Shown here in pieces: positions 1-44,569 of a DNA stretch of 44,569 nt; position 1 is the first letter of the stretch, and the number at the start of each line of letters is the position of its first letter. The position numbers and the translations under genes were made by a program. The notes beneath the pieces are model-generated. The model was not told where the DNA came from, did not search any database, and worked only from the letters and a program-made list of their open reading frames with translations. Source of the stretch: Escherichia phage BEU35; the sequence record OM632668.1. One strand, 5' to 3'.

Positions 1-27
1 ACGGAGCCGCAAGGCGCGTTTCTCGGT

Positions 28-1251: not shown

Positions 1252-1263
1252 GAGGATTATTCA

Positions 1264-1818
1264 ATGTTAACTATGAACGGTCAGAATCAGGGTGTTAAGA
1301 CAAAACACCGGGAATGGCTGCACCACTTCGATAAATGGCAGAAGGTGCGCCACGCGCTGGAAGGCGACCTTATCCGCTATCTGCGCAACGTTGGGAAGAA
1401 TGAGCCGGACCCGACCTACGCGGCACAGCGCCAGGAAGAATACGAGAACGGCGCTATCTGTTACAACTTCACCAAGAGAACGCTGGCGGGGATGGTCGGC
1501 AGTGTCATGCGCAAAGACCCCGAGCAGATTATACCGCCTGAACTGGAGTACCTGTTACGTAACGCGGACGGTTCTGGTGTCGGGCTGTGGCAGCACGCAC
1601 AGGATACGCTAATGGAGATTGATTCGGTGGGTCGTGGCGGGTTGCTGGTGGACGCCCCGGAGACAGCCGCGGCAACGGCAGCCGAACAGAACGCGGGGTT
1701 ACTAAACCCGGTCATTGCATTCTACACTGCTGAGAACATCATCAACTGGCGACTGACCCGCATCGGCTCAGTGAACCGTGTGACGATGGTCGTGTTTAAG
1801 CTCCACCTGAGCTTGTGA
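1264..1818 (+). CDS. portal-like protein, N-terminal segment only (184 codons then stop)
   Basis: Canonical position immediately after terL; recalled resemblance to N-terminal region of P22 gp1-type portals (e.g. DSVGRGGLLVDA); too short for a complete portal. Confidence 0.45.
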   Translation: MLTMNGQNQGVKTKHREWLHHFDKWQKVRHALEGDLIRYLRNVGKNEPDPTYAAQRQEEYENGAICYNFTKRTLAGMVGSVMRKDPEQIIPPELEYLLRNADGSGVGLWQHAQDTLMEIDSVGRGGLLVDAPETAAATAAEQNAGLLNPVIAFYTAENIINWRLTRIGSVNRVTMVVFKLHLSL

Positions 1819-1982
1819 AGTATGAACAAGCGACCGCGGCGCGGGCAGGTAACGGAGCGGGACGTAAGTCCTGAGTGTAGTTACGCTGACGCGTTCGGAA
1901 GGGCCATACTCTATTGCTTGTGTAAAAAGTAACTGGTTTACTGAGATTACGCCGTTTCTATGTTTAAATTATAAGGACTAGC

Positions 1983-28244: not shown

Positions 28245-29482
28245 TCTAAATCCTCCTCTGTAACTTGATTCCACTCAGGACGTTTGTCATCCGCCGTTGC
28301 GACGCATGGCGCACCGGGCTTACGGGTAATGAAGTCTTTCAGTTCTTCTTCCGGTACAATTTTAACCGCTTCGGTCGGTGTCATAAGAACTACCTTTTGC
28401 AGCATAGTACCGTACTTCTCGAATACTGCATCGGTATCTTTCCACGCACGATTACCCGGGCGTCCTTCAACCAGTTTATACCCCGGCACTTTCTTACCGG
28501 AATGTAACGCAGCAGCCATAGCTTTCTCAACCTTGTCGATGTGCTGGCGCAACAACGGCAACTTCTCATACTCAGCTACGAGTTGCTCTGGCGTAAGCTC
28601 AAGTGCAAAGTCGTCCTCCAGTTCTTCCGCCAGCCCCGCGTTAACGGTTTTTGTACGCGCTGCGCATTGTTCAGAGAACCGACACCACTGACAACCATCT
28701 ACCGACGGCTTGAAGTCCGACGCTTTCAGGTTCTTTTTACCCCGGAAATAGGCATCAAGAGCCAACAGCGCCCGTTTCTGTGCAAACTTAGCGAACAGTT
28801 CCAGACCTTCAACCGAGATGTCCCACTCCGATGCACCGCCAGCGTACGGCTGGAAGATGACCAGTCGAACGGTTGTTATGCTATAACGTCTCTTGAGTCG
28901 GCGATAAACGCCGAGAGCATAAAGCATAAGCTGCTTGTTTTCTTTCGCTTCGACACGATGCCGCCCGGTTTTCAGGTCGCAGATGATAAGCATGTGTTCG
29001 TCGGTGTTAGCCAGTTCCTGTATGGCAACAAGGTCAGCAGTTCCGAACGTCTCAACGCCTTCATACCCCGGATGCAATACCTCAGTAAGATTAACACGCA
29101 TTTCCAGCTTGGCGTAAGTCGCTATATCGATAATCGCCTTGCAGTAGTCGGTGTACTTGCGCACCTGCTCAATCATGTCCGCCGTAATCAGTACCGCGCC
29201 TTTCATCGGGCTGATTAGTGCCTTAATCTGGCCTTTGCCTTCATCCAGCACGTAAGCACCGACTTCACGCTCTAACGGCAGCGCAGTTCCGCGAATATAA
29301 GCGTTGAGATGGACCTCAGCTATGGTGTGCATTGCCGTGCCTAATACAGCGGCTTTACCTGACGTGTTAGGGATATCTTTTTCACAGGCCAGTGATGCCG
29401 CGCAACTTAGCCACTTTTTAGCCCCTGACGGCGACAGTAAGGCATGTACATCGTTATTGCCGCCGCGTTCTTTAAGAATCAT
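28241..29482 (-). CDS. PD-(D/E)xK exonuclease, Cas4/DUF2800-like, with C-terminal Cys cluster
   Basis: RecB-nuclease-like core with CQWCRFSEQC; ends in TEEDLE. Confidence 0.65.
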   Translation of the reverse strand: MILKERGGNNDVHALLSPSGAKKWLSCAASLACEKDIPNTSGKAAVLGTAMHTIAEVHLNAYIRGTALPLEREVGAYVLDEGKGQIKALISPMKGAVLITADMIEQVRKYTDYCKAIIDIATYAKLEMRVNLTEVLHPGYEGVETFGTADLVAIQELANTDEHMLIICDLKTGRHRVEAKENKQLMLYALGVYRRLKRRYSITTVRLVIFQPYAGGASEWDISVEGLELFAKFAQKRALLALDAYFRGKKNLKASDFKPSVDGCQWCRFSEQCAARTKTVNAGLAEELEDDFALELTPEQLVAEYEKLPLLRQHIDKVEKAMAAALHSGKKVPGYKLVEGRPGNRAWKDTDAVFEKYGTMLQKVVLMTPTEAVKIVPEEELKDFITRKPGAPCVATADDKRPEWNQVTEEDLE

Positions 29483-29841
29483 CGTAAACTCTCCAAATAC
29501 AAGTTTAATGCCTGTAACTGTTCTTCTGTAGGAATGAAAGAATCATCGCGATGTAAGTCGCTTAACTGTTGCAACATTCCTGCGAACTGACGTCTTGCGT
29601 CAACAGCGTCCATGTGATGCTTTTCACTTTTATATATTAATGTTTTCGGGTAATCCTCAAGCCTGCCAGACGATTTATTCACGCGGAGCGCACGAGCTTC
29701 ATGCACAATGTGAATGTACTTTTTGCCGTTTTGTAACACAGTAGCTACGCCGCTGCTCTTTCTGCGGTCGCCGACTGTGTAAACCTTGTCGCCACTACGC
29801 AGATTAAGCCACCATTTATCGGTCATACCCTGTTCTCCCAC
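29479..29841 (-). CDS. hypothetical protein
   Basis: Operon context. Confidence 0.4.
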   Translation of the reverse strand: MGEQGMTDKWWLNLRSGDKVYTVGDRRKSSGVATVLQNGKKYIHIVHEARALRVNKSSGRLEDYPKTLIYKSEKHHMDAVDARRQFAGMLQQLSDLHRDDSFIPTEEQLQALNLYLESLR

Positions 29842-30095
29842 TGGTCAATTAAATGTCGTGTCTGGTGCTGGCAGTGCATGGCCCAGCTATACATCGACTC
29901 GAAGACATAAAAGTCAGGCTTGGCAAAAGTCGTGCGCTTAATCTGCGACACGTGACGGCCTATATCTTTGGGCCTGGGTACTTTGCCTAAGTACGCCATC
30001 TCTTCCATCTGGTGCGCACCGGAAGGAGCGCGCAATAGCCATAGAGCCTCCGTGTTATCCCGTCGGTCAATACCTCGGTAGAGTTGGTAAATCAT
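29823..30095 (-). CDS. hypothetical protein
   Basis: Operon context. Confidence 0.35.
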   Translation of the reverse strand: MIYQLYRGIDRRDNTEALWLLRAPSGAHQMEEMAYLGKVPRPKDIGRHVSQIKRTTFAKPDFYVFESMYSWAMHCQHQTRHLIDQWENRV

Positions 30096-30137
30096 ATTAC
30101 GACCCTCTGTTAAAGCGGCCAGAAGGCCGCGGGATAG

Positions 30138-30641
30138 TTATTCTTCTTCGAAATACTTGTTCTTAATCGCCGTCAGGCGTTTCAGGTATTCAGCCAGGTC
30201 TTCGTCTTTAATCGCGGCAATCTTCATTTTCTTACCGGTGAACTCCTCCAGCAGTTCATCGGAATCGTCGCACGCAGCATCGCTAGGACCTTCGTTAATT
30301 GCATCGTCGATAGCCTGAATCTGGTCACGAAGAGACTGGTAATCGACCTCTTCTTTCTCTTCTTCTGGTTCTGGAGTCGGCTCCTCTACTTTAGCTTTAC
30401 GCGGCTTGCGTTTCGGCTTCTCTTCTTCTTCTGCTGGTTTAGCGTCAACGATGTCTTCACCTTCAACAGGGATTTCTTTTGTTGCTTCTTTTTCGCACTC
30501 AGCTACCGCTTCTTTGGTATACACTACCGTCTCTACTTCTAACGGCGCTGCAACTTGTGCTGACTGTTTCGCACTGTTCGCAGCAATCAGTTCATGTGCA
30601 ACTACGAAACGTTCCAGTAATTTTAAGAATTGTTCTAACAT
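30138..30641 (-). CDS. highly acidic hypothetical protein
   Basis: E/D-rich with internal KPKRKPRKAK; second gene of leftward early operon. Confidence 0.5.
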   Translation of the reverse strand: MLEQFLKLLERFVVAHELIAANSAKQSAQVAAPLEVETVVYTKEAVAECEKEATKEIPVEGEDIVDAKPAEEEEKPKRKPRKAKVEEPTPEPEEEKEEVDYQSLRDQIQAIDDAINEGPSDAACDDSDELLEEFTGKKMKIAAIKDEDLAEYLKRLTAIKNKYFEEE

Positions 30642-30663
30642 TTGTTTCTCCTGTTTATTTAGG

Positions 30664-30891
30664 TTACTCGCCGTCGCCTTCTGTAAGGCTATCGTCTATT
30701 AATTCAAATTTACCGTTTGAGTGTTGGATAGCTTCTTGCCCGCAATGGTCGCAAACCACCAGTTTATCGAATCCGTCAAACTCGTCCCCGACTACGCAAG
30801 AAAGTACAAATTTATGTTTTGTACATACTTCTTGATGTTCACCGAAAATTACCCGGAAACATTTAGTTATAGCTCCAGTGATTATGTTCAT
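30664..30891 (-). CDS. small Cys/His-rich protein, paralog A
   Basis: Near-identical core to ORF 35878..36090 (QEVCT-HKFVLSCVVGDEFDGFDKL-VCDHCGQEAIQHSNGKFELI). Confidence 0.55.
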   Translation of the reverse strand: MNIITGAITKCFRVIFGEHQEVCTKHKFVLSCVVGDEFDGFDKLVVCDHCGQEAIQHSNGKFELIDDSLTEGDGE

Positions 30892-30919
30892 ATCTTCACC
30901 TCTCGTTTGGTATGGGCTA

Positions 30920-30949
30920 ACTATAATAGCGAACTATTCATGATGTCAA
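30920..30949 (-). promoter_or_regulatory. sigma70-like promoter (TTGACA-N18-TATAGT) for leftward early operon
   Basis: Read on minus strand: ttgaca tcatgaatagttcgctat tatagt. Confidence 0.5.
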
Positions 30950-31013
30950 TGGGCTTTTCTAAAATAATTAATATGGTACTATTCACACATCAACTGACTA
31001 AGGAGTAATTGAC

Positions 31014-31229
31014 ATGCAACCATCCGAACTAGGCATCCGTGTAGAGCAACGCCGTAAAGAACTCGGCATCTCCCAGCGCCGTCTGGCGGTCCTGACCGGC
31101 GTTTCCCAGGGCGCAATTAACCAGCTGGCTCTCGGTGTAACTCAGGACGTCCGCCCGGCAACGTTGTTTAAACTGGCGGAAGTGCTGGAAGTAGACGCTA
31201 AGTGGCTGGCGTTCGGTGAAGGGGCTTGA
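31014..31229 (+). CDS. XRE-family helix-turn-helix transcriptional regulator (Cro/CI-like)
   Basis: ISQRRLAVLTGVSQGAINQL HTH signature. Confidence 0.65.
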   Translation: MQPSELGIRVEQRRKELGISQRRLAVLTGVSQGAINQLALGVTQDVRPATLFKLAEVLEVDAKWLAFGEGA

Positions 31230-31247
31230 CGCCCCTTTCTTTTTATT
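31219..31247 (+). terminator. intrinsic terminator overlapping the regulator stop codon
   Basis: GGGGC-ttgac-GCCCC followed by TTTCTTTTTA. Confidence 0.55.
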
Positions 31248-31440
31248 GCACCTTTATCGGGTATCTTTTGCGAAACTTACCTAACCCGCAGTACACGCTG
31301 TAAGCCTCTGTGTAACTGAACACAACATGATACCCGCGCCCATAAGGAACTACGTTAAGAACTTCTACTACTTCGCCTCTGTGGTTGGTGTATTTATTAC
31401 CTTTCAGTTCGTCGCTTACTTCTTTAAATTTACCGCTCAT
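31243..31440 (-). CDS. small hypothetical protein
   Basis: GGAGGA RBS; ATGA overlap with primase stop. Confidence 0.4.
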   Translation of the reverse strand: MSGKFKEVSDELKGNKYTNHRGEVVEVLNVVPYGRGYHVVFSYTEAYSVYCGLGKFRKRYPIKVQ

Positions 31441-33704
31441 TCCAAATCCTCCTCTGTCACTGTCAACATTTCATTCGGTTCGTATATTGTCTTTGGAATC
31501 TTGTTATCAGTTATTCTGGTGTTCAGCCTGTAACGACCTGGGATTATCTGATTGTTTTCGTCAGTACCCGGAACAAGATACCCGGCCTCAACCATTTTCT
31601 TAATCTTCCCGCGTTCTATGGCTTCTTTGGAGTTAAACGCCTTTGCGTTGGGGTCTGACTGTGCGAGCTTATTCGCCGCGGCGACTGTGATGCCTTCGTT
31701 GCCGTTGTAGGTTCCTTCCGCCAGTTCAAACGCCGCGAGTATCGTGGCCTCCGAACTGTTGACGGCGTTCTCTACGGTTTTACGTACATTTTCTTTACCT
31801 TCTTTCGTCAACCCTTCTTCCCGCTCTTTCTCCTCGTCAGTTTTGAACGGCTCGAAACCCCACGGCATCAACACAAGCGCCTTGTGTGGTTCAGGCAGGT
31901 CCAGGTTTACGATTGTGCCGTATTCCTCTGTGCTACCCAGGAACTCAACCGCTCGGTATTCTTTAGGTGGCGGCGCTTCACGGAACTGTACCGACTCCAG
32001 CACCATGCCAACCGTCTTCTGCTGAGGCCCGTGCTTGAATTTCGAGTGATATACGTTTATCTGACGGTCGGTTGCACGTTCGATTGTCAGTTCCACATCA
32101 ACACCCGCATACAGCGCCCCACTGCCGCGTGCTTTCTTTCCACCCTTCGGCGTATGGTGGACAACGCCTACTGCGGCTTTAGTTGCATCGCGTACTTCTT
32201 TCAGAATGGCGATAACTTTACCCATGCCGATTGCTGTTGATGAACTGTTCTCGTCGAACTTATCAATCGTCAGTGCCAGGGTCTGGTTAAGGGTGTCGAA
32301 CGCAACCATGCCAATTGGCTCGTCGCCAGCAGTTTCGCGCATTAACTTAATCAGGCTTTTAAGTTTGCCGACTTCGCCCATATCGATGACATGTACATAA
32401 TCTTTACCTTCCTCGCCGTATTTAGCCGCGAGCGCATCAATACGTGTACGTGTGGCTGCCCCACCCTCGCCGTCGATATAGAAATGGTGACAACGCTGGG
32501 TGTCAGCCCCTGCAAACCGGTATCCGGCGGCGCTCAGGTACATCATCCCCAGCGTATAGAATGATTTGTACGTGCCCGATTCTCCGACGATACCCCAGAT
32601 ACAATCCGACGGCATGTACCCCTCAACGACGAAATCAGCCTTTACCGGCTCCGGTAACTCGTCCTCCTCTGAGTCCTCGTCGTCTTCCAGGTCGTCGAGG
32701 CTGCATGAGACAGATTCACGCGCCCCCCAACCGATGGCCTCTGCGACTTCACTGAACGGCAGCCCGGTCGCATCGCACGCGTACTTCCACACCTCTTTCG
32801 GTGACAGGCCTTCTGTCGCCGTAATGTCTGTGTCGTGAATCATGGTTACGTTTGGCGCTTCATACCCCTCGCGCGGGAAGCACAGCAGGAAGTCGTCCGG
32901 GCGCGGTGTCGGGTCGCTGTAGTTTTCAGCATGTTCCGGTGTGGCTGGCATCTTAAGGCCGCGCGGCGTCATGACGCCGCCGTACTCAAACGCCAGTGCT
33001 TCAAACGCGTCTGTAAACGCGGTGCGCAGTTCTTCCGGTATCTGGTAATCCGATGCGCTGCTAACGTCAACGGCTGGGATGCCTTCCAGTAACTCGTTCG
33101 GGTCGATCAGGTCGTTGCGGCGCGACCAGATAACGGTAGCGCCGACCGGCGGCAGGTACATCGGCTGCGACAGAGTGAACCCGCTGCGGTCCGCACCCAT
33201 GCCTTTGAAGAAGTGCTCCAGCAACCCATGACGAACACGGATGATATCACCACCCTCAACTGGGCGGGCCAGCGGCATGACGACGCGAAAGCGAGGCGAC
33301 TCATCGGTATGTGATGCCGTGGTGTAGAGACACATCGCCCGGCGGCTGCGATTAACCAGGCGCACCGCTTCCTGGTACTCTTCCGGTGTTGCACTGTCGA
33401 AGTCCAGATACGCCAGCGACGATTTGCTCACAGACGCGTCACAGCGATAGAAGAAGCCTTTACGCGCTTGTTTAAAGCCACCGGTTTCCGGGTCTTTTAC
33501 GGTGCTGTGTGTAGAATCGCACGCGGCCGTGATATAACCGGGCGCAGTCTTGGGGTTAATCCCGTCACGAACGGCATCGAGCGGCTGGATTAACTCTTTC
33601 AGGTCGTCCAGTGTTGCCGTGTGTGCGGTTCTGACATTTATATCCTTTTTCCCCGCCCGCGCGTTGCGGCGTGACCACGAGTAGGATAAAATTACATCGG
33701 ACAT
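31437..33704 (-). CDS. DNA primase/helicase-like replication protein (central P-loop ATPase)
   Basis: Walker A GESGTYKS, acidic linker DDLEDDEDSEEDE, 755 aa, ends in TEEDLE. Confidence 0.65.
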   Translation of the reverse strand: MSDVILSYSWSRRNARAGKKDINVRTAHTATLDDLKELIQPLDAVRDGINPKTAPGYITAACDSTHSTVKDPETGGFKQARKGFFYRCDASVSKSSLAYLDFDSATPEEYQEAVRLVNRSRRAMCLYTTASHTDESPRFRVVMPLARPVEGGDIIRVRHGLLEHFFKGMGADRSGFTLSQPMYLPPVGATVIWSRRNDLIDPNELLEGIPAVDVSSASDYQIPEELRTAFTDAFEALAFEYGGVMTPRGLKMPATPEHAENYSDPTPRPDDFLLCFPREGYEAPNVTMIHDTDITATEGLSPKEVWKYACDATGLPFSEVAEAIGWGARESVSCSLDDLEDDEDSEEDELPEPVKADFVVEGYMPSDCIWGIVGESGTYKSFYTLGMMYLSAAGYRFAGADTQRCHHFYIDGEGGAATRTRIDALAAKYGEEGKDYVHVIDMGEVGKLKSLIKLMRETAGDEPIGMVAFDTLNQTLALTIDKFDENSSSTAIGMGKVIAILKEVRDATKAAVGVVHHTPKGGKKARGSGALYAGVDVELTIERATDRQINVYHSKFKHGPQQKTVGMVLESVQFREAPPPKEYRAVEFLGSTEEYGTIVNLDLPEPHKALVLMPWGFEPFKTDEEKEREEGLTKEGKENVRKTVENAVNSSEATILAAFELAEGTYNGNEGITVAAANKLAQSDPNAKAFNSKEAIERGKIKKMVEAGYLVPGTDENNQIIPGRYRLNTRITDNKIPKTIYEPNEMLTVTEEDLE

Positions 33705-33762
33705 GTTGTATTTCCTTCAGCAAGTAATTTGGCCTCGGCGTTCACCGCGTCGGGGCTTTCTT

Positions 33763-33996
33763 TTATTCCAGGTCTTCTAAAGTAGCGGTCATTCCGCGAA
33801 CTTCAGCAAAGGCACTATATTTCCCGCCAACATTTTTCACGACGCCAGATTTAACCAGCACTTTTAACGACCCTTCAATAATGACGGAACTATAGTACTT
33901 AAAATAACTGCGGCGCAAGTCGATAACGCTGCACGACCCTTTTTTACGTGTCAACGAAACGACCGCCGTAAATACGCGTGACTGAAACTCGGTCAT
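33763..33996 (-). CDS. small hypothetical protein ending in TLEDLE
   Basis: Operon context; C-terminal motif shared with exonuclease and primase. Confidence 0.4.
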   Translation of the reverse strand: MTEFQSRVFTAVVSLTRKKGSCSVIDLRRSYFKYYSSVIIEGSLKVLVKSGVVKNVGGKYSAFAEVRGMTATLEDLE

Positions 33997-34196
33997 TTCA
34001 CGTTCTCCTTAATCCACGCTTCCACTTTCTCCGGGTCGAACGTACCGGGCTGCCGGCGACCCATAATGCGGATACAACAATCAGGGAACCTCCCACTCTT
34101 TAACCAGTTATTAAGCGTGCGGCGAGTAACCCCGATACGCTCAGCTACTTCATTCTGTGTCATTCTCAAACCCTCATTATCAGTTAACGAAACCAA
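33993..34196 (-). CDS. AlpA/MerR-like helix-turn-helix DNA-binding protein
   Basis: MTQNEVAERIGVTRRTLNNW HTH signature. Confidence 0.55.
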   Translation of the reverse strand: MVSLTDNEGLRMTQNEVAERIGVTRRTLNNWLKSGRFPDCCIRIMGRRQPGTFDPEKVEAWIKENVK

Positions 34197-34599
34197 GTAT
34201 ACATTGCGAATAATGGGAAATCAAACATAATCGCACCTATTGACATTATGAAAATCTTCGTTTAAGGTGCTTCTATATCTTAGTTACTTTGATTCCTGTT
34301 CACCTTGTAATACCTGCTTGAAACGCAGCGGCGCCAAAGCGCCAGCGAAGTGTTAAGCAGCAGATTACTGAACATAAGAATTACCGTAACTTTCCTTCCG
34401 TAGTATCTCTGGTTGCCCTGGGCAAGCTCTATTCTCATCGGCAGCATATCTCTTAAGTATCTGATAATTAAAAGTTTCTATAGTTGCCGTGAGCAAGGTA
34501 GAGAGTACTTCACTCCGCTGGGGTGGGCTAACGCCCACCCACTGCGTTGCGTACTCTTTTAAGAAACGAAAGAATCACAACGGCAACGTAACTATTCTC

Positions 34600-34628
34600 T
34601 TGCACACCCCAACATAATAGGATACTAT
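34600..34628 (+). promoter_or_regulatory. sigma70-like promoter (TTGCAC-N17-TACTAT)
   Basis: Hexamer spacing read from sequence; shares aataggNtactattca with promoters near 30977 and 35841. Confidence 0.4.
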
Positions 34629-34662
34629 TCACTTATCGAAACGAGACAGAGGAGTGAGGGTT

Positions 34663-34854
34663 ATGTTTAAGAAGGGTCAGTTGGTTAAAACTAAACGCGG
34701 AGGGCAATATGTATTAGTGTTGCAGGACGAGAGCGAGTATGACGAGGATAATCTGGTTGACGTATGGGGTCTGGTAAGAAAGAAAACTGGGTTCGCCTCA
34801 CGCGATAATTTAGAACTCATCGGCAACAATTTTAAATTCAAAGGGGTGAAGTGA
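34663..34854 (+). CDS. hypothetical protein
   Basis: GAGGAG RBS; first gene of rightward operon. Confidence 0.4.
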   Translation: MFKKGQLVKTKRGGQYVLVLQDESEYDEDNLVDVWGLVRKKTGFASRDNLELIGNNFKFKGVK

Positions 34855-35060
34855 TGGAAGAATTAATTTGTATTGAATCCCGCCAGGATTGGTTTGTGAA
34901 AGGTAACAAATATTCGTCAGGAGTATATTACGACGGCCGTCGATACGTTTTAGATGAAGACGGTGATGAATGGGATTTAGAGGACACTGTGGGCGAGACT
35001 TTAACCGTTAGTTTTCTTCAATGTTGTTTCCGCATCATTCACAACGGCATCGAATCATGA
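34851..35060 (+). CDS. hypothetical protein
   Basis: 4-nt overlap coupling. Confidence 0.4.
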   Translation: MMEELICIESRQDWFVKGNKYSSGVYYDGRRYVLDEDGDEWDLEDTVGETLTVSFLQCCFRIIHNGIES

Positions 35061-35142
35061 GGCTCGTGCCGACGACTCTGAGGGAGGTTGCCGTGGATAA
35101 TATTTTAATTGTCAGCGCTGTTTATGTGGGGTGGAGGTTGAT

Positions 35143-35337
35143 ATGAGTCCATATAATGAATTCCGCTTACGCCGTCTTGTTGGTGGGCTGCGCGCCGCCG
35201 AGTTTGGCGTTGAATGTTGGGAAAAGGCGAAGTACACCCCATGGAAGTCGTGGAATTTGGCCCACGCTAAGGCGGTAGCGCAGTACCGGGAGTACAAGTT
35301 AAATAGTTTCCTAAAGCACCACGGGGTAGAGCTATGA
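35143..35337 (+). CDS. hypothetical protein
   Basis: GGTGGAGG RBS upstream of ATG. Confidence 0.4.
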   Translation: MSPYNEFRLRRLVGGLRAAEFGVECWEKAKYTPWKSWNLAHAKAVAQYREYKLNSFLKHHGVEL

Positions 35338-35477
35338 GAGAAGCATTCGAACGGTGGGCCGTCGTCGAGGGTCTGCCGGTTAACAAGGGTTCAAAGAAAG
35401 AGTACCTGAACGTTAAGACGCGTCTTGCGTGGCGGGCGTGGAAAGCTGGTGTGCAGTATGTGATGAATACGAGGTGA
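35334..35477 (+). CDS. small hypothetical protein (47 aa, below ORF-track cutoff)
   Basis: ATGA overlap upstream, next gene 3 nt downstream. Confidence 0.35.
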   Translation: MREAFERWAVVEGLPVNKGSKKEYLNVKTRLAWRAWKAGVQYVMNTR

Positions 35478-35480
35478 TTT

Positions 35481-35669
35481 ATGGGTGAGTGGATTAAGTG
35501 TAGTGAGCGGATGCCGGAGCCTTATGAATACGTTCTTGTAACTGATTGTTTTGTTGGCTGTGAGGTTATGCGTGTTAATTCGGATGGCTACTGGGGACCA
35601 GCGAAGAGTTTATACCACGGCGATATCTCCCACTGGATGCCCTTACCTGAGCCACCGGCGCCGGTGTAA
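35481..35669 (+). CDS. DUF551-like small protein
   Basis: C-terminal WMPLPEPP pattern. Confidence 0.45.
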   Translation: MGEWIKCSERMPEPYEYVLVTDCFVGCEVMRVNSDGYWGPAKSLYHGDISHWMPLPEPPAPV

Positions 35670-35703
35670 CAGGTCAATAGTTTACTATTTGGCTTTGTGA
35701 CTT

Positions 35704-35740
35704 ACGCTGCTACACAGCAGCGTATCATTTTTCTCATTTT
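35704..35740 (+). terminator. intrinsic terminator
   Basis: ACGCTGCT-acac-AGCAGCGT followed by T-rich run. Confidence 0.55.
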
Positions 35741-35817
35741 TGTTCTATTTCACCAAACGCAACAATCGAAGCGACTATTGCGGGAGATGCAACAATACAA
35801 ACACCAATAAAATTTAC

Positions 35818-35846
35818 TTGCACGCTAAGATAGAATAGGCTACTAT
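35818..35846 (+). promoter_or_regulatory. sigma70-like promoter (TTGCAC-N17-TACTAT) for rightward early operon
   Basis: Hexamer spacing read from sequence; GAGAGGAG RBS precedes first gene. Confidence 0.45.
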
Positions 35847-35877
35847 TCATTTACACAAACGAGAGGAGAGACAGAAG

Positions 35878-36090
35878 ATGAATGTAGTGGCGAGATGTTT
35901 TCACGCAATTTTCGGCGCACCGCAAGAAGTATGCACTAACCATAAATTTGTACTTTCTTGCGTGGTGGGGGATGAGTTTGATGGGTTCGATAAACTTATT
36001 GTCTGTGACCATTGCGGGCAAGAAGCTATACAACACTCAAACGGTAAATTCGAACTAATTAACGAGGAAGGGGATGGGGATGGTGAGTAG
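35878..36090 (+). CDS. small Cys/His-rich protein, paralog B
   Basis: Paralog of 30664..30891 in inverted orientation. Confidence 0.55.
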   Translation: MNVVARCFHAIFGAPQEVCTNHKFVLSCVVGDEFDGFDKLIVCDHCGQEAIQHSNGKFELINEEGDGDGE

Positions 36091-36562
36091 CAAAAACGAA
36101 GTATTCGAGTACCTGATTGACCAGTTACGGCAGCACGTAAATAGCCACCCGCACAAGCAGCAGTGCGAAGACCTGGCGCATGAGGTGCAGTCACTCAAGA
36201 ATCAGTTACGTGATGCGTCAGCACTGGTGGCGGAGTTACATGAAACAATAAAACTAATGAACGAGGACTTTAACCGTGCAACCGGGCGAGGTGGCTCACT
36301 GCCGAAAGGGGAGAGCTACGTAGTAGGTGAACATGGGCCCGAGCAACCCGGTTGCCGTAAGGAAGATACTCAGGAATGCGAGCACTCTTGGATTATTATG
36401 CTTGGGTTGTTTCTCAGCGAAGGCAATACGAACAACGTTCCTGGTAGTGAGCTTTGCTCTAAATGTGGTAAACGTGAGTGGGACGACAAGGTATATAAAC
36501 CGAAAAACGATACTCAGGAATGTGAGCATGAGTGGAGATGTAAGACGGTTTTTTGGCAATAG
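36074..36562 (+). CDS. hypothetical protein with internal DTQECEH(S/E)W repeat
   Basis: Two copies of a ~20-nt direct repeat giving KEDTQECEHSW and NDTQECEHEW. Confidence 0.45.
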   Translation: MGMVSSKNEVFEYLIDQLRQHVNSHPHKQQCEDLAHEVQSLKNQLRDASALVAELHETIKLMNEDFNRATGRGGSLPKGESYVVGEHGPEQPGCRKEDTQECEHSWIIMLGLFLSEGNTNNVPGSELCSKCGKREWDDKVYKPKNDTQECEHEWRCKTVFWQ

Positions 36563-36607
36563 ACCTGGTGTTCCGTATTGCCGTAAATGTGGTGTGGAGG
36601 CGAAGCA

Positions 36608-36811
36608 ATGACCAGCATCTTATTTATCTGGGTACTATCCGCGGGCCAGATGCAACTAGCGGCATCAGAAACGTTTTATTCGATGGAGGCGTGCCAGTCA
36701 GCGGCGCGTGCCGCAGAGAACGCGCACTTCCTGTTTCAGGGCGACAAGCCCATCGATTCAGAGGTACGCGCTATCTGCTCACCTAAGCGACTTGGTAAAC
36801 AGGAGAAGTGA
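36608..36811 (+). CDS. small secreted/membrane-anchored protein
   Basis: GGAGG RBS; N-terminal hydrophobic signal-like segment. Confidence 0.4.
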   Translation: MTSILFIWVLSAGQMQLAASETFYSMEACQSAARAAENAHFLFQGDKPIDSEVRAICSPKRLGKQEK

Positions 36812-36996
36812 TTATGGTGCGGAGATATACCTACGACCAGATATTCGGGTTTACTCCTGATGTTGAGGGCGTGTTAGTGCTTTACGAAGATTACGCGAAA
36901 CTTGAAGCTGAGTTACAGAAATACAAAGACCAGTACCCTGATTATGTCGAGTGCGCGAACTGTGGGTCGGTTACACATGTGGAGGGAGTGGAGTGA
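36808..36996 (+). CDS. hypothetical protein
   Basis: Overlap coupling. Confidence 0.4.
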   Translation: MIMVRRYTYDQIFGFTPDVEGVLVLYEDYAKLEAELQKYKDQYPDYVECANCGSVTHVEGVE

Positions 36997-37289
36997 TGTC
37001 GTTAGCAACTGACATCCTGAAACGAAGCGGCCTTGCGCCGCTGTCACCGAGAGCGAAGACACGTATACACAAGCGTCGCCGTAACGTGCTGTACCCAGAG
37101 ATTCAGGACAGACGTAAAGCTATCCGCGCCTGTGGATTCCAGAACGGGAAGGCTGTGAATCTCGGTGAGTTTAAAACGCAGGAGCGCGCTGCAATCGCTA
37201 ATCGGTTATTTAATTACTGGAAATCGCTGGGATACGATGATATTCCGACGAAACCACAGAGACGACAATACATCTGGCGTCATAAATAA
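36996..37289 (+). CDS. putative AP2-like DNA-binding protein
   Basis: NGKAVNLGEFKTQERAAIANRL resembles AP2 core; GGAGGG RBS. Confidence 0.3.
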   Translation: MSLATDILKRSGLAPLSPRAKTRIHKRRRNVLYPEIQDRRKAIRACGFQNGKAVNLGEFKTQERAAIANRLFNYWKSLGYDDIPTKPQRRQYIWRHK

Positions 37290-37364
37290 ACCGTTATTAA
37301 GATAATTCCTAACCGTGCTATCCTCCAGTTACTGCATACTTAATACGCACCTGGAGGATTCATC

Positions 37365-37673
37365 TTGGATAAATTTACTGAAACAGTGACAGGCTGGCTT
37401 CTCGCTGCCGCGCTAGCCGGAGGGGTAATCGGACTACGACAACATAAGTCTGTTATTTCTGGCCCCATCGACGGATTCTGCTTTATCGCAACCGGCTTCA
37501 CTTGCGCTGTATTCGGCGCGCCTCTTGCCGCTCAATGGTTCGGTATTACCGGAGAGCGCGAGATAGCTGGCCTCGGATTCATCATCGCAATTCTCTGGAT
37601 GCCCATCTATTCCCGTCTCTCCGGTATCGTCTCTGGAGAATACATCGCTCGTCGAGGAGGCACAGATGAATGA
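37365..37673 (+). CDS. holin (TTG start)
   Basis: Hydrophobic TM segments, charged C-terminus, GGAGGA RBS, first gene of lysis cassette. Confidence 0.55.
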   Translation: MDKFTETVTGWLLAAALAGGVIGLRQHKSVISGPIDGFCFIATGFTCAVFGAPLAAQWFGITGEREIAGLGFIIAILWMPIYSRLSGIVSGEYIARRGGTDE

Positions 37674-37938
37674 GTTATTCTGGTTCGGTGGTATGCTGGC
37701 AATCGGGGGCACATCGCTGTTTAATGTGTATCATCCCAGCGTGGACGACGGATTATTTGGCCGGGTGCTCTATATCCTGACTGCCATCGTCTGTGCTGCC
37801 GGATGTATCCACCTGTTACAGGGCAGCATGTCACCAACGCTGCCTGAGACGTTAATCACATTAGTTGCGCTGCGTCAGATTCGCCAGGTGTGGCTGTCAT
37901 ACGGAGGACATAAGCGTGTCTCGAAATATTTCAGATAA
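37666..37938 (+). CDS. second small membrane protein of lysis cassette (holin/antiholin-like)
   Basis: Two predicted TM helices; overlaps holin stop. Confidence 0.45.
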   Translation: MNELFWFGGMLAIGGTSLFNVYHPSVDDGLFGRVLYILTAIVCAAGCIHLLQGSMSPTLPETLITLVALRQIRQVWLSYGGHKRVSKYFR

Positions 37939-38404
37939 TGGATTGCATTTTACCGCCGCGTTCGAGGGATTCCGAGGAACTGCGTATCGCGCTACACCGA
38001 ATGAGAAGTACCTGACTATTGGGTATGGAAGCTATGGCCCGCATGTTAAGGCGGGGCAGACCATCACTCCAGGACAAGGCCTCCTGTTACTTAATCGCGA
38101 TATGGCTAAAGCCGTAGCTGCGGTTGATGCGGCAGCGCACCATTCACTGACACAGGCACAGTTCGACGCTGTGTGTGACCTGGTCTACAACGCAGGCGCT
38201 GGCGTGATTGCCGCTACCACGGGCACAGGTAAGGCGCTGCGTTCTGGTGACATCGAGACGCTGCGGGCTAAGCTGACACTGTTCATCAACCAGAACGGCA
38301 GACCACTACTCGGCCTGCGTCGCCGTACAGCAGGTCGTCTGGCGCTGTTTGACGGTAAACCGTGGCAAGAGGCGGAGGCAATTGGGCGCGCGGTGAAAGG
38401 TTGA
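37916..38404 (+). CDS. endolysin, GH24 lysozyme-like (GTG start)
   Basis: FEGFRGTAYRATPNEKYLTIGYG catalytic Glu-Asp-Thr-type signature; GGAGGA RBS. Confidence 0.7.
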   Translation: MSRNISDNGLHFTAAFEGFRGTAYRATPNEKYLTIGYGSYGPHVKAGQTITPGQGLLLLNRDMAKAVAAVDAAAHHSLTQAQFDAVCDLVYNAGAGVIAATTGTGKALRSGDIETLRAKLTLFINQNGRPLLGLRRRTAGRLALFDGKPWQEAEAIGRAVKG

Positions 38405-38468
38405 CACCTAAGACTAATCCGACGATACTTAAATCACCTCCTGTTCCATCCCTCTGCTCTCCAGTTTT

Positions 38469-38501
38469 ATCCCGGCCCTGACCCAGCCGGGATTTTTTTT
38501 T
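38469..38501 (+). terminator. strong intrinsic terminator after lysis cassette
   Basis: ATCCCGGC-loop-GCCGGGAT followed by T9. Confidence 0.7.
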
Positions 38502-38523
38502 ATCTATTTTCGGTAATGACTAG

Positions 38524-38552
38524 TTGACTATTACCCTCGACCCTATTATATT
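38524..38552 (+). promoter_or_regulatory. sigma70-like promoter (TTGACT-N17-TATATT)
   Basis: Hexamers and spacing read from sequence. Confidence 0.45.
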
Positions 38553-38585
38553 TACTCCATCGACAACGAGAACGGAGTAGAGAAG

Positions 38586-38783
38586 ATGAGTAACGTACCG
38601 ACAATCGCAATAACCGAGGAACTTGAAGCCAAATGTATCGCATCAGTTATAGGGAATGGTTCGGTGGAAAAACTACAGATGAGGGCCGCTGCGGGCTACA
38701 TACGCAGGGCTAATAGCGCGCAGACTGATGTTTTACGTAAACGTTACCTCGTGAAAGCGTTAGAAATACTGGAGAATAACTAA
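38586..38783 (+). CDS. hypothetical protein
   Basis: GGAG RBS; first of a string of coupled small genes. Confidence 0.4.
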   Translation: MSNVPTIAITEELEAKCIASVIGNGSVEKLQMRAAAGYIRRANSAQTDVLRKRYLVKALEILENN

Positions 38784-38932
38784 TGAAAATCACAGATATC
38801 GAAGCATTCAAAGACGCGCAACTGATGGCACGTATCGCCGTTAGTAACCTTAGCAACAGCATCCCGGCAGACGCGTTCTGGTTCGCTGCGATGCAGACAC
38901 TTAAAGCAGCATATGCAGGAGAGAAGAAATGA
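38783..38932 (+). CDS. small hypothetical protein (49 aa)
   Basis: TAATG overlap upstream, ATGA overlap downstream. Confidence 0.35.
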   Translation: MKITDIEAFKDAQLMARIAVSNLSNSIPADAFWFAAMQTLKAAYAGEKK

Positions 38933-39126
38933 AAGTTAAAGCAGCTAAAATTCTCTGGTTACCCGCCCTTGACTATGTGACAGAGGGTAAAGTGTATGAC
39001 GTATACAACCCGAAAACTACTGGTTTTGGTTATATAGTTGCCGATGACGGCTGTGATATTTACATAGACTTTGGTAGCGATGAAGGTGATGGTTTCCACG
39101 GCGTTAAATGGGAGATTGTCGAATGA
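38929..39126 (+). CDS. hypothetical protein
   Basis: Overlap coupling. Confidence 0.4.
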   Translation: MKVKAAKILWLPALDYVTEGKVYDVYNPKTTGFGYIVADDGCDIYIDFGSDEGDGFHGVKWEIVE

Positions 39127-39281
39127 GCGAACAAACACCAATCAGCCAACCGTTACGAGTAGGCCGTAAAGTCAGTCACACCCCGTTCCCGACACGCGAG
39201 GAACTGATGAAACGTAACAGTTTCCCGGGGCCGGACAAGAACAAGTATCTCAATCGCATGTGGGGAGAGCGTAAAGAATGA
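39123..39281 (+). CDS. small hypothetical protein (52 aa)
   Basis: ATGA overlaps at both ends. Confidence 0.35.
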   Translation: MSEQTPISQPLRVGRKVSHTPFPTREELMKRNSFPGPDKNKYLNRMWGERKE

Positions 39282-39463
39282 CTGACCGCGAATATGAAAA
39301 GATGATGGTTGAGGCCGTTAACAGCGGCGTAGACATCGGACACGTGATGTGCGTCCTGAATACTAAAATCGCGGTAGCCGAGCAAATGGTCGAGTCGCTT
39401 TACGAGACGCGCCGTGAACTGATTAACCGCTTCAACCTGAACAAAGGTGACACCAATGCCTAA
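39278..39463 (+). CDS. hypothetical protein
   Basis: Overlap coupling. Confidence 0.4.
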   Translation: MTDREYEKMMVEAVNSGVDIGHVMCVLNTKIAVAEQMVESLYETRRELINRFNLNKGDTNA

Positions 39464-39743
39464 AATCACAATCGCATCTCTCGAGCGCCGTATTCTGGTG
39501 CTTGAGTCGGAGAAACAGACGTTAGGCGGGCAACTGTCGATTAACGGTGAGTTTCAGCTGGAGGCGTTCCGTATACTCCTCGGCGTTATGAAGCAGGAAC
39601 CCAGCGCATACGCGGGAGTGTTCCTTGACGAGGAAGGTTCGCAGACACTAAGTTACTACGCTACCGAAGAAGAATTAGCGTTCGACGGCCCCGCGGTATC
39701 TATCCCGCTGTTCGATAACTGGATGGTGTACGACTATGACTAA
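39456..39743 (+). CDS. hypothetical protein
   Basis: Overlap coupling. Confidence 0.4.
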   Translation: MPKITIASLERRILVLESEKQTLGGQLSINGEFQLEAFRILLGVMKQEPSAYAGVFLDEEGSQTLSYYATEEELAFDGPAVSIPLFDNWMVYDYD

Positions 39744-39921
39744 AGCGCCTGAACCAGTAGTTATCGATGGCGTCCTGTGGAAGCCATACTCGGTTTACCA
39801 CATCGACGCCGACGGGAAGAAGTTTAGCTTCTACATTTTTGCAATTAGCCGTGAGCACGCCGCTTGTGTGGTTGACGATATTCGAGAAACGGCGTGGCTT
39901 GGTGATGAGATAGCGGGGTGA
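39736..39921 (+). CDS. hypothetical protein
   Basis: Overlap coupling. Confidence 0.4.
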   Translation: MTKAPEPVVIDGVLWKPYSVYHIDADGKKFSFYIFAISREHAACVVDDIRETAWLGDEIAG

Positions 39922-39925
39922 GAGT

Positions 39926-40009
39926 ATGAGTCTCGAGGTGGTTATCGGTCTGGTGGGTCTTAGTTACTTCATTGGGCTGTTGGTTGGGTTTCTGTGGGGT
40001 AAATACTAA
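39926..40009 (+). CDS. very small hydrophobic peptide (27 aa)
   Basis: Translation MSLEVVIGLVGLSYFIGLLVGFLWGKY; stop overlaps next ATG. Confidence 0.25.
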   Translation: MSLEVVIGLVGLSYFIGLLVGFLWGKY

Positions 40010-40179
40010 TGTTCAGTGACATTAACGCGGCAATCGAAGAAGCAATCTGGCGTCGCTACAACGGCGAGCAACAACGGCATTTCTGCCTGGTGCAACGCGG
40101 TAACATGATTGCCGTAGTGCAGGACCGCGATAACAAATATCCGAATGCGATGTGGACAACGAGGAATTTTTTAGGATGA
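40009..40179 (+). CDS. small hypothetical protein (56 aa)
   Basis: TAATG and ATGA overlaps with neighbours. Confidence 0.3.
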   Translation: MFSDINAAIEEAIWRRYNGEQQRHFCLVQRGNMIAVVQDRDNKYPNAMWTTRNFLG

Positions 40180-40412
40180 TTACCAGCATTCCGAACCTGA
40201 TTAAAGAATTCGGCACGATGGCCGAGACATGCCGGCAAACCGGCATCAACGAAATGACGATTGCGAAGTACAGCAAAGACGTTGATTGCGAGCGCCACGT
40301 AATTTATAACAATCGTCTGATGACACATGTTAAGACAAGCCCGGTGTTATTCACGCGCCGAGGTATCACTAAAACTGAGCAACGCATTGCTAAAGGGGAG
40401 AGTGGGGAATGA
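40176..40412 (+). CDS. hypothetical protein
   Basis: Overlap coupling. Confidence 0.4.
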   Translation: MITSIPNLIKEFGTMAETCRQTGINEMTIAKYSKDVDCERHVIYNNRLMTHVKTSPVLFTRRGITKTEQRIAKGESGE

Positions 40413-40591
40413 TTGAGATTTTGAGGGCTACGAATGTTGCTGGTGACCTGGTGTTTTGGCTGGCCTTTCTCGGTGTGCTGATAAAACAACCGACTCTGTT
40501 TAACAGTCTCCCTCGTTACCTGTGGTGGCCTATGTTTTTAGGCATGGGTGTATCAGGCGTGGCAGGCATCCTTTTGTGGTTTTTCAAATGA
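40409..40591 (+). CDS. small membrane protein
   Basis: Two hydrophobic helices. Confidence 0.4.
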   Translation: MIEILRATNVAGDLVFWLAFLGVLIKQPTLFNSLPRYLWWPMFLGMGVSGVAGILLWFFK

Positions 40592-40693
40592 GACTACTAA
40601 TCATCCCTAACGCCTGGGCCATTCCCGTAGCCAACGACCATTACGGCGGCGACGGTAAAAGAGCGCAACGACACGGCCTATACAACTGATACA

Positions 40694-40718
40694 AGCCCTC
40701 TACGGAGGGCTTTTCTGT
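40694..40718 (+). terminator. intrinsic terminator before packaging genes
   Basis: GCCCTC-tacg-GAGGGC followed by TTTTCTGT. Confidence 0.55.
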
Positions 40719-40810
40719 ACATCCCGCCCAATCCCCTTATATAATCTATTTAGACGCGTAGGGCGCGTCTGGTGCGCTCTGATGGTCAGACGCATATGCA
40801 AGGGGATTCT

Positions 40811-41320
40811 ATGAAGCTGAAACTTAAGCAGCCATCGCCAGAGGTGGTGCAAGCTGCACATGAAGAAGCTGTTAGCGCAAACCGTCGCCGTAAACAACCG
40901 CGCGGTAAACAGAGCCTTTATCAATCATCCCGTAATTCCGCTGCGCTGTGGGACCCGGACTATTGCGACGAATTGATTCGTTTCTTTGACCGCACGTCGT
41001 GGGAGCTTGTGCCAACGTCTAAGGGTGATGAACGCCCACTGATTCAGGATAAGCCGCCGTCACTGGCCCGCTTCGCCTTACACATCGGCGTAACTATCCC
41101 GATAATTAAGCTGTGGCTGCGCGAGATTCCCGCATTTGCAGAAGCATACGAAACCGCCCAGGCTCTGGAAGAGGCATACTTCACTGAGACAGGGGCTGCG
41201 GGCATCTCGGCTACGTTTGCTGCCGCGAAACTGGGCCTGAATAAAACAGTTGTCGCCGAAGAAGTACGCGACGAGCCAATCAGCGAAGTAACAATTAAGG
41301 TGGTGTCCGGTGAACGTTAA
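40811..41320 (+). CDS. terS: terminase small subunit
   Basis: HTH-like PSLARFALHIGVTIPIIKLWLRE; AAGGGG RBS. Confidence 0.6.
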   Translation: MKLKLKQPSPEVVQAAHEEAVSANRRRKQPRGKQSLYQSSRNSAALWDPDYCDELIRFFDRTSWELVPTSKGDERPLIQDKPPSLARFALHIGVTIPIIKLWLREIPAFAEAYETAQALEEAYFTETGAAGISATFAAAKLGLNKTVVAEEVRDEPISEVTIKVVSGER

Positions 41321-41337
41321 TATCACGGCAACGTGAG

Positions 41338-42279
41338 GTGTGGGAATACTCAGAACCAAGTGCAGAGTTCGAAACAAAGTTCGGTGAACAATACCGCGTT
41401 CTCGATTTGATTGACGGGCGCTACCGCCAGCGAATCTATCGCTTCGATGCCGAAGGTGGCGCTCAGGATGATGTAATCGAAATATTCCCGGAACTTGGCG
41501 AACAGTTACGGGGCAAAATCCCGTTCACGTTCATTGGGGCAAGCAACAACGATGCGACCATTGATGATGCACCTTTGCTGCCGCTTGCTGAACTAAACAT
41601 AGGACATTTCCGCAACAGCGCAGACAATGAGGAGTCCAGTTTCGTTGTAGGTCAGCCAACTCTGTTCATCGCCCCGGGTGAGAACATGAGCATGGAACAG
41701 TGGAAAGAAGCCAACCCACACGGCGTGCGTATGGGGTCACGTTCTGGCCATAACATCGGTTACGGCGGCAATGCGTTTCTGGTCCAGGCCGGTGAGAACA
41801 ACCTAGCCAAGCAGAACATGCTGGATAAAGAGAATCAGGCCATCCAGATTGGTGCGCAGCTTATCACCCCTACCCAGCAAATCACCGCTGAATCAGCCCG
41901 CCTGCAACGTGGTGCCGACACGTCCGTTATGGCGACAATTGCACGTAACGTAAGCATGGCGTATACCGATGCGCTAAAGTGGGTTGCGGGTATGCTTGGG
42001 CTTAGTGACGGCACTGAAATTGAGTTCAAACTGAACATGGAGTTCTTCCTGCAACCAATGACCGCCCAGGACCGCGCTCAGTGGATGGCGGATATTAACG
42101 CGGGCCTGTTACCGGCTACCGCTTACTATGCCGCGTTGCGTAAGGCGGGGGTAACTGACTGGACAGACGAGGACATTCAGAACGCTATCGAGGATGCGCC
42201 GCTGCCGTTAGGTGCTGTTACTCAGGTGGCGGGGGAGATTCCGCAGTCGGCGCAGCAACAGGACACCACTCAGCCGTAA
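41338..42279 (+). CDS. portal-like protein, C-terminal segment (GTG start in ORF track)
   Basis: Recalled resemblance to P22 gp1-type portal core (TLFIAPGENMSMEQW vs PFFWPEQIAGFEHMY); immediately upstream of Mu-F-type gene. Confidence 0.45.
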   Translation: MWEYSEPSAEFETKFGEQYRVLDLIDGRYRQRIYRFDAEGGAQDDVIEIFPELGEQLRGKIPFTFIGASNNDATIDDAPLLPLAELNIGHFRNSADNEESSFVVGQPTLFIAPGENMSMEQWKEANPHGVRMGSRSGHNIGYGGNAFLVQAGENNLAKQNMLDKENQAIQIGAQLITPTQQITAESARLQRGADTSVMATIARNVSMAYTDALKWVAGMLGLSDGTEIEFKLNMEFFLQPMTAQDRAQWMADINAGLLPATAYYAALRKAGVTDWTDEDIQNAIEDAPLPLGAVTQVAGEIPQSAQQQDTTQP

Positions 42280-42289
42280 GTTCACATAT

Positions 42290-42310
42290 AGCCCCGAAAG
42301 GGGCTTTCTT
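42290..42310 (+). terminator. terminator-like hairpin between portal-like ORF and head morphogenesis gene
   Basis: AGCCCC-gaaa-GGGGCT followed by TTCTT. Confidence 0.4.
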
Positions 42311-42315
42311 ATAGT

Positions 42316-44286: not shown

Positions 44287-44569
44287 TGATGGGCTTTTTC
44301 AAAGTAACTGATGTACCGTCGCGTCGCGTAGTCCAGTACGCCCGCGTGTCTGGCTCTGGCGAGAACGTGGTGTTTATTGAAGATGAAAGTGTACTCGGTA
44401 CACCAGTAGACGATATGCCGTTTGCAGACAAGACAGGTATCGCACTCTCTGCCGCTGGTATGCTTTATGAAATTCCGTATCTGGCGGACGCTGGTGACGT
44501 GTATTTCTCTGTGCAACCGAAAGACACTGAACTTACAGATGGCAGCGCAACTATCACTGTCGAAGTTAA
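44286..44569 (+). CDS. hypothetical protein, 3'-truncated by window end
   Basis: ATG overlaps stop of head morphogenesis gene (TAATG); frame open to window end. Confidence 0.4.
   Translation, partial: MMGFFKVTDVPSRRVVQYARVSGSGENVVFIEDESVLGTPVDDMPFADKTGIALSAAGMLYEIPYLADAGDVYFSVQPKDTELTDGSATITVEV

Follow-up and report, generated by a model that had tools for sequence, protein, structure and literature searches.

Two diverged copies of a small accessory gene at promoter-proximal loci of an Escherichia Kagunavirus

The closest described counterparts of the gene analysed here are the class I early genes of T7 near gene 0.3 (ocr) and the genes of coliphage hotspots, which are small, lie promoter-proximally in early regions and are present in some relatives and absent from others. 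We characterized a gene family, phrog_32657, that encodes proteins of about 70 aa and occurs twice in a 44,569-nt stretch of DNA from Escherichia phage BEU35 (OM632668.1; hereafter, the window), which matched Escherichia phage BEU33 (Kagunavirus, Guernseyvirinae) at 100% identity. The gene has the size, the promoter-proximal and probably early position and the presence/absence polymorphism of these known systems, and further resembles hotspot genes in that alternative open reading frames (ORFs) take the same slot, that it has been exchanged between unrelated phages and that it has an ocr-like neighbour in Kayfunavirus. It differs from Ocr in showing no sequence or fold relation to it (no match of phrog_32657 to PF08684 or phrog_2568) and in that gene-bearing phages stay fully sensitive to restriction–modification (RM) in the plating data available for them (below). 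Taken as a whole, the evidence makes it rather probable that the two copies are the A and B alleles of a mobile ORFan early-gene cassette that doubly occupies two alternative leader slots. The two-slot layout, the A and B types and the apparent cross-family transfers were absent from the sources searched; the genomic behaviour of the cassette is what phage mosaicism leads one to expect, and the gene offers a clean starting point for discovering a function.

Copy A (30664..30891, minus strand) encodes an acidic Cys/His protein of 75 aa and copy B (35878..36090, plus strand) a paralogue of 70 aa. Both match the phrog_32657 profile of PHROGs v4, A over positions 1–75 of 75 (E = 1.6e-52) and B over positions 8–75 of 75 (E = 6.6e-41), and the two proteins are identical at 53 of 68 positions (78%; BLASTP E = 1e-38), with the common core QEVCT.HKFVLSCVVGDEFDGFDKL.VCDHCGQEAIQHSNGKFELI. 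At the DNA level they form a single inverted pair with arms of 171 nt that are 85% complementary and spaced 5032 nt apart, the left arm (30692..30862) being the coding core of A and the right arm (35895..36065) that of B; the 23-mer cataaatttgtactttcttgcgt is the same in both copies. The initial annotation had described these ORFs as inverted, diverged paralogues with a near-identical core and nucleotide identity in blocks, which these figures bear out, and had considered the possibility that the similarity was confined to the promoter and ribosome-binding site (RBS); the alignment places it in the coding core. When the flanks are included, similarity begins a few codons inside the ORFs and ends a few codons short of the stops, the upstream regions have in common only the leader AAACGAGAGG and a 14-bp palindrome, and the genes downstream of A (phrog_3127) and of B (phrog_6094) are unrelated. 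The cores of A and B differ by 14.5 synonymous versus 2.5 non-synonymous substitutions (synonymous divergence (dS), 0.92; ratio of non-synonymous to synonymous divergence (dN/dS), 0.025), and the whole-gene dN/dS is 0.14 (range of dS, 0.9–1.1). A core dN/dS of 0.025 at a dS of about 0.9 shows that both genes are old and under selection at the protein level; A and B have thus been maintained separately as coding genes and are no non-coding repeat. A recent segmental duplication is ruled out by the dS of 0.9–1.1 and by the limitation of identity to the 171 nt plus the 10-nt leader.

A tblastn search against 50,697 phage records found phrog_32657 in 56, of which 24 have the size of a Kagunavirus and 32 that of a Kayfunavirus (T7-like) genome; among these, only BEU33 has it at two places. 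The adjacent backbone gene occurs in 402 records (287 Salmonella and approximately 108 E. coli), and phrog_32657 was found in none of the 287 Salmonella phages that bear it. Among the ~108 E. coli Kagunavirus records, approximately 84 (~78%) lack the gene altogether; ~21 carry it at locus A alone, K1ind1 at locus B alone and BEU33 at both. The cassette at locus A behaves as an indel (30651..30895, minus strand) that is precisely missing in K1ind1 and in an IMG/VR contig (L011), where the empty site reads AAACGAGAGG joined directly to AGAGAAACAAATG. Across genomes, locus A is occupied by the phrog_32657 gene, by an ORF of 85 aa or by one of 49 aa, or is empty, the last three states being seen in other B-carrying contigs. 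At locus B, the alternatives to the phrog_32657 gene are a 55-aa ORF, a pair of ORFs of 42 and 62 aa, or no gene at all; in Golestan, phiEc4 and K-02, the same promoter and downstream gene enclose short unrelated ORFs, and in contig L030 the site is empty. Both loci thus show the presence/absence and the replacement by unrelated ORFs between conserved flanks that define an accessory region. In public assemblies, the exact B protein occurs in 55 index blocks and the exact A protein in 23 contigs, and such contigs that cover both slots are A-only or B-only (B-only: L016–L018 and L020), the BEU33 lineage excepted. A 45-kb metagenomic contig (L012) carries a full A but only the final 84 nt of B; the promoter of copy B (P_B) and the 5′ half of the gene were lost in a deletion bounded by GCGACyATTGCGGG microhomologies. 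These patterns indicate that the phrog_32657 gene is a single-gene accessory cassette of ~0.25 kb and that BEU33 represents a rare lineage in which both slots are occupied.

The two types also recombine. On the basis of diagnostic sites scored against two A-type and two B-type references, the locus A gene of phage fEg-Eco06 has the A promoter, turns B-type exactly at the AAACGAGAGG leader (equivalent to 30899..30908), is mostly B-type in its head and core, and is A-type again in its tail. The locus A genes of Golestan and L012 each contain a short patch identical to copy B of the window, and the B remnant of L012 combines an A-like core with a B tail. The flanks of these recombinant alleles are parental on both sides, and 11 of 11 relatives compared are collinear across the 5-kb interval, with no inverted form of the bracketed segment among them. 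Parental flanks together with collinearity show that A and B exchange sequence by gene conversion, within a genome or between co-infecting phages, and not by inversion. The recombination footprint suggested on initial annotation is borne out by the B-type tracts in the locus A alleles of fEg-Eco06, Golestan and L012; the bracket was not found inverted in any relative compared.

The cassette has further moved into T7-like phages. In Kayfunavirus LM33_P1, the gene has 90% DNA identity to copy A, and the segment in common with Kagunavirus spans the RBS to 22 nt beyond the stop; within it lies AAACAGGAGA, the RBS that in Kagunavirus belongs to the gene downstream of locus A and that has no ORF to serve in the podovirus. 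The gene of Kayfunavirus vB_Eco_1RS (L026) is B-type, and the ~30 nt that follow it are homologous to the beginning of the gene that lies downstream of locus B in Kagunavirus. The vB_Eco_1RS cassette is flanked by ~45-nt direct repeats of podovirus sequence (3452–3500 and 3745–3790; GCGAACGTCTGGGATATAGCAAC...AGCAAACTGTAATGA). These are copies of the junction at which one flanking podovirus gene stops and the other starts, and are a footprint left by the insertion. The carried-over flanks, from locus A in one phage and locus B in the other, indicate two independent transfers, each from a siphovirus to a podovirus. In both podoviruses, the gene lies in the early region, with an ocr-like anti-restriction gene (phrog_2568, matched by LM33_P1 gp3, the neighbour of the phrog_32657 gene) on one side and the RNA polymerase gene on the other. 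A 129-aa protein (P0007), encoded at 938–1327 of a 1867-nt contig from an E. coli assembly (L024; GCA_022432785.1) and in L025, joins an Ocr domain (PF08684) to the C-terminal 22 residues (AIQHSNGKFELIDDSLTEGDGE) of the A-type protein; apparently ocr and the cassette lay side by side in a T7-like phage and a deletion fused them.

Database searches place phrog_32657 on its own. Its members are labelled 'hypothetical protein' in GenBank (for example, LM33_P1 gp4 and Golestan gp47) and gave no match in Pfam, no PADLOC-DB model at E ≤ 0.1 and no sequence match in the PDB. A word-indexed search of 5.8 billion proteins returned 7 clusters, and an exhaustive profile search of 1.84 billion representatives returned only the family's own cluster; phrog_32657 is an ORFan family. 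No functional statement was found in the literature under the peptide motifs, the PHROG identifier or LM33_P1, and the accessory-gene screen papers and their supplements did not contain a phrog_32657 sequence. Five residues (C23, H26, C32, C47 and C50) do not vary among 8 sequences with identities as low as 61%, and lie within the invariant blocks E21-V-C23-T, H26-K-F-V, C32, GDEFDGFDKL, C47-D-x-C50-G-Q-E and a terminal G-D-x-E, in agreement with the Cys/His arrangement noticed on initial annotation. The N-terminal 20 residues and the C-terminal tail are variable and define the two types (A, head MNIITGAITK and tail DDSLTEGDGE; B, head MNVVARCFHAIFGAP and tail NEEGDGDGE). The proteins are ~8 kDa, with an isoelectric point of 4.5–4.7 and an acidic Gly/Asp/Glu tail, and the predicted structure has a β-rich core (predicted local distance difference test score, 71). 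The ligand pattern CxxH-x20-CxxC is compatible with one zinc site, and the family probably binds zinc. E. coli YacG is a small zinc-ribbon/zinc-knuckle gyrase inhibitor with an acidic tail. By analogy, phrog_32657 proteins would resemble YacG-type inhibitors in length (~65–75 aa), in two Cys/His knuckles flanking short β-strands and in the acidic C-terminal tail; they differ in having no detectable homology and in using CxxH...CxxC ligands and not four Cys. The most divergent member (78 aa, 61% identical) lies at 2406–2642 of an 8110-nt Logan contig (L027; ERR8981353), where it heads a gene cluster as the first gene past a tailspike gene of the pectate-lyase type and 560 nt of intergenic DNA; this contig, with HNH and pRha/ANT genes, represents a third phage backbone type.

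Each copy is the promoter-proximal gene of an outward-reading unit with the common leader/RBS AAACGAGAGG (30899..30908, minus strand, upstream of A; 35857..35866, plus strand, upstream of B), as had been proposed. The promoter of A (P_A; 30920..30949, minus strand) belongs to a class I with the arrangement TTGACA-18-TATAGT, matches the σ70 consensus at 11 of 12 positions and contains the palindrome AATAGCGAACTATT (30925..30938) in its spacer. P_B (35818..35846, plus strand) belongs to a class II with TTGCAC-17-TACTAT, in which the palindrome AATAGGCTACTATT (35834..35847) overlaps the −10 element. The strong σ70-like promoter that the initial annotation placed before each gene is therefore confirmed for A, whereas P_B is weaker by consensus and was uncalled in a consensus scan, yet is kept in relatives. 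A terminator-like hairpin with a T-run (35703..35734, plus strand; hairpin 35703–35724) ends the upstream rightward unit just before P_B, and copy B therefore heads a transcription unit. A twin of P_B (~34600–34628) stands before the preceding five-gene rightward unit. The annotation's picture of each copy as the first gene of one of two divergent early operons thus holds for the promoter-proximal positions and not for the simple two-operon layout: the 5.2-kb interval contains at least three further units (a cro-like gene on the plus strand, the primase operon on the minus strand and the five-gene rightward unit), and B sits behind a second, internal rightward promoter.

The palindromes of P_A and P_B belong to a wider set. 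The 14-bp motif AATAGN4CTATT occurs at 11 sites in the window at ≤1 mismatch, versus 1.09 expected (10913, 24266, 28032, 30925, 30970, 34616, 35676, 35834, 38519, 42310 and 43572). Class I promoters (TTGACA-17/18-TATAGT, palindrome in the spacer) lie at 24266, 28032 and 30925 and are all leftward; class II promoters (TTGCAC-17-TACTAT, palindrome over the −10) lie at 10913, 34616 and 35834; and the site at 30970 is a 1-mismatch palindrome in an extended −10 version that lacks a −35, upstream of the cro-like gene. The palindrome is also kept in K1ind1, phiEc4 and Golestan, and is a candidate operator of a phage early-gene repressor. The product of the cro-like gene (31014..31229, plus strand; HTH_3, PF01381, E = 2.3e-12) is a candidate regulator that would bind the palindromes and jointly shut these promoters off. 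A literature search found no transcription study of Kagunavirus; the two operator-bearing promoter classes would outline the early regulatory circuit of a genus that is used in phage therapy and synthetic biology.

On the basis of these observations, we propose that the cassette takes either of two promoter-proximal leader slots in Kagunavirus, each independently full, empty or otherwise filled: the slot at locus A behind the leftward promoter of the replication operon, and that at locus B behind the internal rightward promoter. The A and B types would exchange through the conserved core and the common leader. The protein would be made from host-RNA-polymerase promoters immediately upon DNA entry, after which a phage helix-turn-helix repressor acting at the palindrome would silence the cassette together with the other early genes. 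It would act stoichiometrically on a bound host protein, as a conditional counter-defence or host-takeover factor, and carrying both types together would plausibly serve a wider range of target variants rather than a higher dose.

A host-directed early role is suggested because the gene is small, has a constrained core and variable ends and takes an early promoter-proximal position in three backbones, and because its distribution is patchy, it has been transferred repeatedly among phages of the same hosts and it neighbours ocr. Variable accessory regions of phages are enriched in anti-defence genes (bioRxiv 10.1101/2023.04.06.535777). A small, constrained gene that is moved repeatedly among unrelated virulent coliphages sharing hosts of the extraintestinal pathogenic E. 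coli (ExPEC)/K1, O-antigen-bearing kind has a pattern typical of a conditional anti-host weapon, and phrog_32657 may well encode an early host-directed or counter-defence binder. That it would work both in a host-RNA-polymerase-dependent phage and in T7-like phages argues against a role in host-transcription shut-off. Among the BASEL phages, gene A is carried by Bas70, Bas73 and Bas75 and missing from Bas71, Bas72, Bas74 and Bas76, and the group that includes carriers and non-carriers is reported to show uniformly high RM sensitivity (PMC11990801). Within the raw efficiencies of plating (EOPs) of BASEL S1 Data, which cover Bas70–Bas72 in full and one replicate of Bas73, the EOP under EcoKI is 1e-5 to 8e-4 for the gene-bearing Bas70 and Bas73, similar to the gene-free Bas71 and Bas72. 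Under Old, the same data give an EOP of ~0.2–1.4 for Bas70 and no plaques for Bas73, so sensitivity is uncorrelated with the gene. General anti-restriction and anti-Old roles are therefore unsupported by the plating data for these four phages. A bolder and unlikely extension is that phrog_32657 is the first of a novel class of zinc-dependent factors for counter-defence or host takeover, able to work in phages as different in transcription strategy as host-polymerase siphoviruses and T7-like podoviruses. The unchanging core would then contact a conserved host machine, specificity would come from the exchangeable head and acidic tail, BEU33 would keep both alleles for two host-target variants, and the promoter–leader module would be a landing pad through which the cassette could move from one slot to the other. 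At ~70 aa, the protein is a compact candidate for finding a new host target or defence system, and natural, near-isogenic material exists in the genomes that carry A alone, B alone, both copies or no copy, BASEL Bas70–76 among them.

Other explanations of the pair fit parts of the data. The dosage-critical early function proposed on initial annotation, in which a double dose is needed at the start of infection and a copy heads both early units, agrees with two copies that are promoter-proximal, intact and under purifying selection, but most E. coli Kagunavirus records lack any copy, most carriers have one, and the 287 Salmonella relatives have none. Moreover, those contigs with the exact A protein that extend over locus B lack B, and those with exact B lack A (the BEU33 lineage excepted), B has been lost in L012, and the differences between A and B fall mainly in head and tail, unlike what a duplication for dose would predict; the distribution appears largely to refute this explanation, which we regard as improbable. 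The 171 nt might instead act in cis as DNA or RNA, for example in replication or packaging, with the ORFs being incidental, which would explain the high block-wise nucleotide identity. The excess of synonymous substitutions and the dN/dS of 0.025 contradict this, as do distant members that hold the protein motif at 61–68% identity while the DNA drops to 68–72%, and the gene stands alone as an ORF in three phage backbones; we find such an element scarcely credible. An invertible segment, in which recombination between the repeats would turn the 5-kb regulator/primase block around as a switch, would be reminiscent of the Mu G segment (Gin) and the P1 C segment (Cin), in which inverted repeats likewise lie within coding sequence around a multi-kb block, and draws on the inverted orientation, the identical 23-nt blocks and the evidence that the copies recombine. 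However, the relatives are collinear over 30.9–35.8 kb, the orientation is the same in two independent assemblies, and the recombinant alleles keep parental flanks on both sides of a converted patch and are not reciprocal hybrids. Unlike the Gin and Cin segments, the locus has arms that are only 85% identical, no enhancer and no inverted relative; the eight main ORFs at or between the copies gave only HTH_3, AAA_25 helicase-primase and HTH_17, with no resolvase or serine invertase model among those eight and the smallest rightward ORFs only partly scanned. We consider a switch of this kind very improbable.

A further concern is that A and B came from two co-cultured Kagunavirus strains, one A-only and one B-only, that were merged in silico. 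The BEU33 GenBank record (OM632667.1) is unannotated, flagged UNVERIFIED_ORG and mis-assembled exactly at the copy B gene: precisely the 171-nt core of B is gone from locus B (vacated site, 38785/38786), leaving an in-frame stub, and is displaced to 34180–34350, equivalent to window 31514, where it cuts the helicase-primase at the 3′ end of its gene to 732–736 aa versus 755 aa. This record is thus rearranged exactly at mosaic breakpoints, the portal gene of the window is split with one block only 97.9% identical to the record, and both copies occur in no other complete genome, all of which would suit a merger. On the other side, a Logan contig (L019; run SRR15082293) matches window 28878–41337 as one 12,460-nt block at 99.992%, includes both copies as well as a primase intact at 755 aa and runs on into window 1–1760, and the window arrangement at both copies therefore stands, although L019 may stem from the same isolate. 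The unrelated metagenome of L012 has A and a decayed B on one 45-kb contig, and the B-type patches inside locus A alleles require contact between the types. A chimeric origin is accordingly doubtful to the point of being improbable, and the rearrangement in OM632667.1 is probably an assembly artefact. At locus B, K1ind1 aligns with the window without a break through the promoter, gene B and the downstream gene. The displaced core was also considered as a real mobile mini-element and rejected, given that it truncates the helicase-primase and conflicts with L019.

The records and the neighbouring genes showed several other features. OM632667.1 also contains a 52-nt insert (37402–37453) that duplicates window 1797–1848, and both of its anomalies lie at mosaic breakpoints relative to Golestan. 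At window 31514, similarity to Golestan (98.6% until there) breaks off 26 codons before the end of the helicase-primase, beyond which there is no blastn match to Golestan, a sharp mosaic junction in an essential replication gene. The 3′ end of copy B overlaps the start of the phrog_6094 gene (ATG at 36074 or 36080). This gene (36074–36562, plus strand) has an internal direct repeat (36365–36384 and 36509–36528) that encodes a repeated DTQECEH and contains more Cys pairs; its product may also be a small metal-binding protein. The window is itself mis-ordered: its portal gene is split between 1264–1818 and 41338–42279, the independent contig L019 connects window 41337 directly to window 1, and the block 41332–44569 (the C-terminal part of the portal and a Mu-F-like head protein) has its proper place between 1796 and 1797. 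Identity to OM632667.1 is only 97.9% in this block, against at least 99.96% in the remainder. An in-frame insert of ~299 aa at window 43008–43904, which is absent from OM632667.1, lengthens the Mu-F-like head-morphogenesis protein (ORF 42316–44286, plus strand) to 656 aa, versus 347 aa in Golestan. The insert has a weak match to Intein_splicing (PF14890, E = 4.4e-4, under the Pfam cut-off) and may be an intein; a 295-aa antisense ORF (43078–43965) overlaps it.

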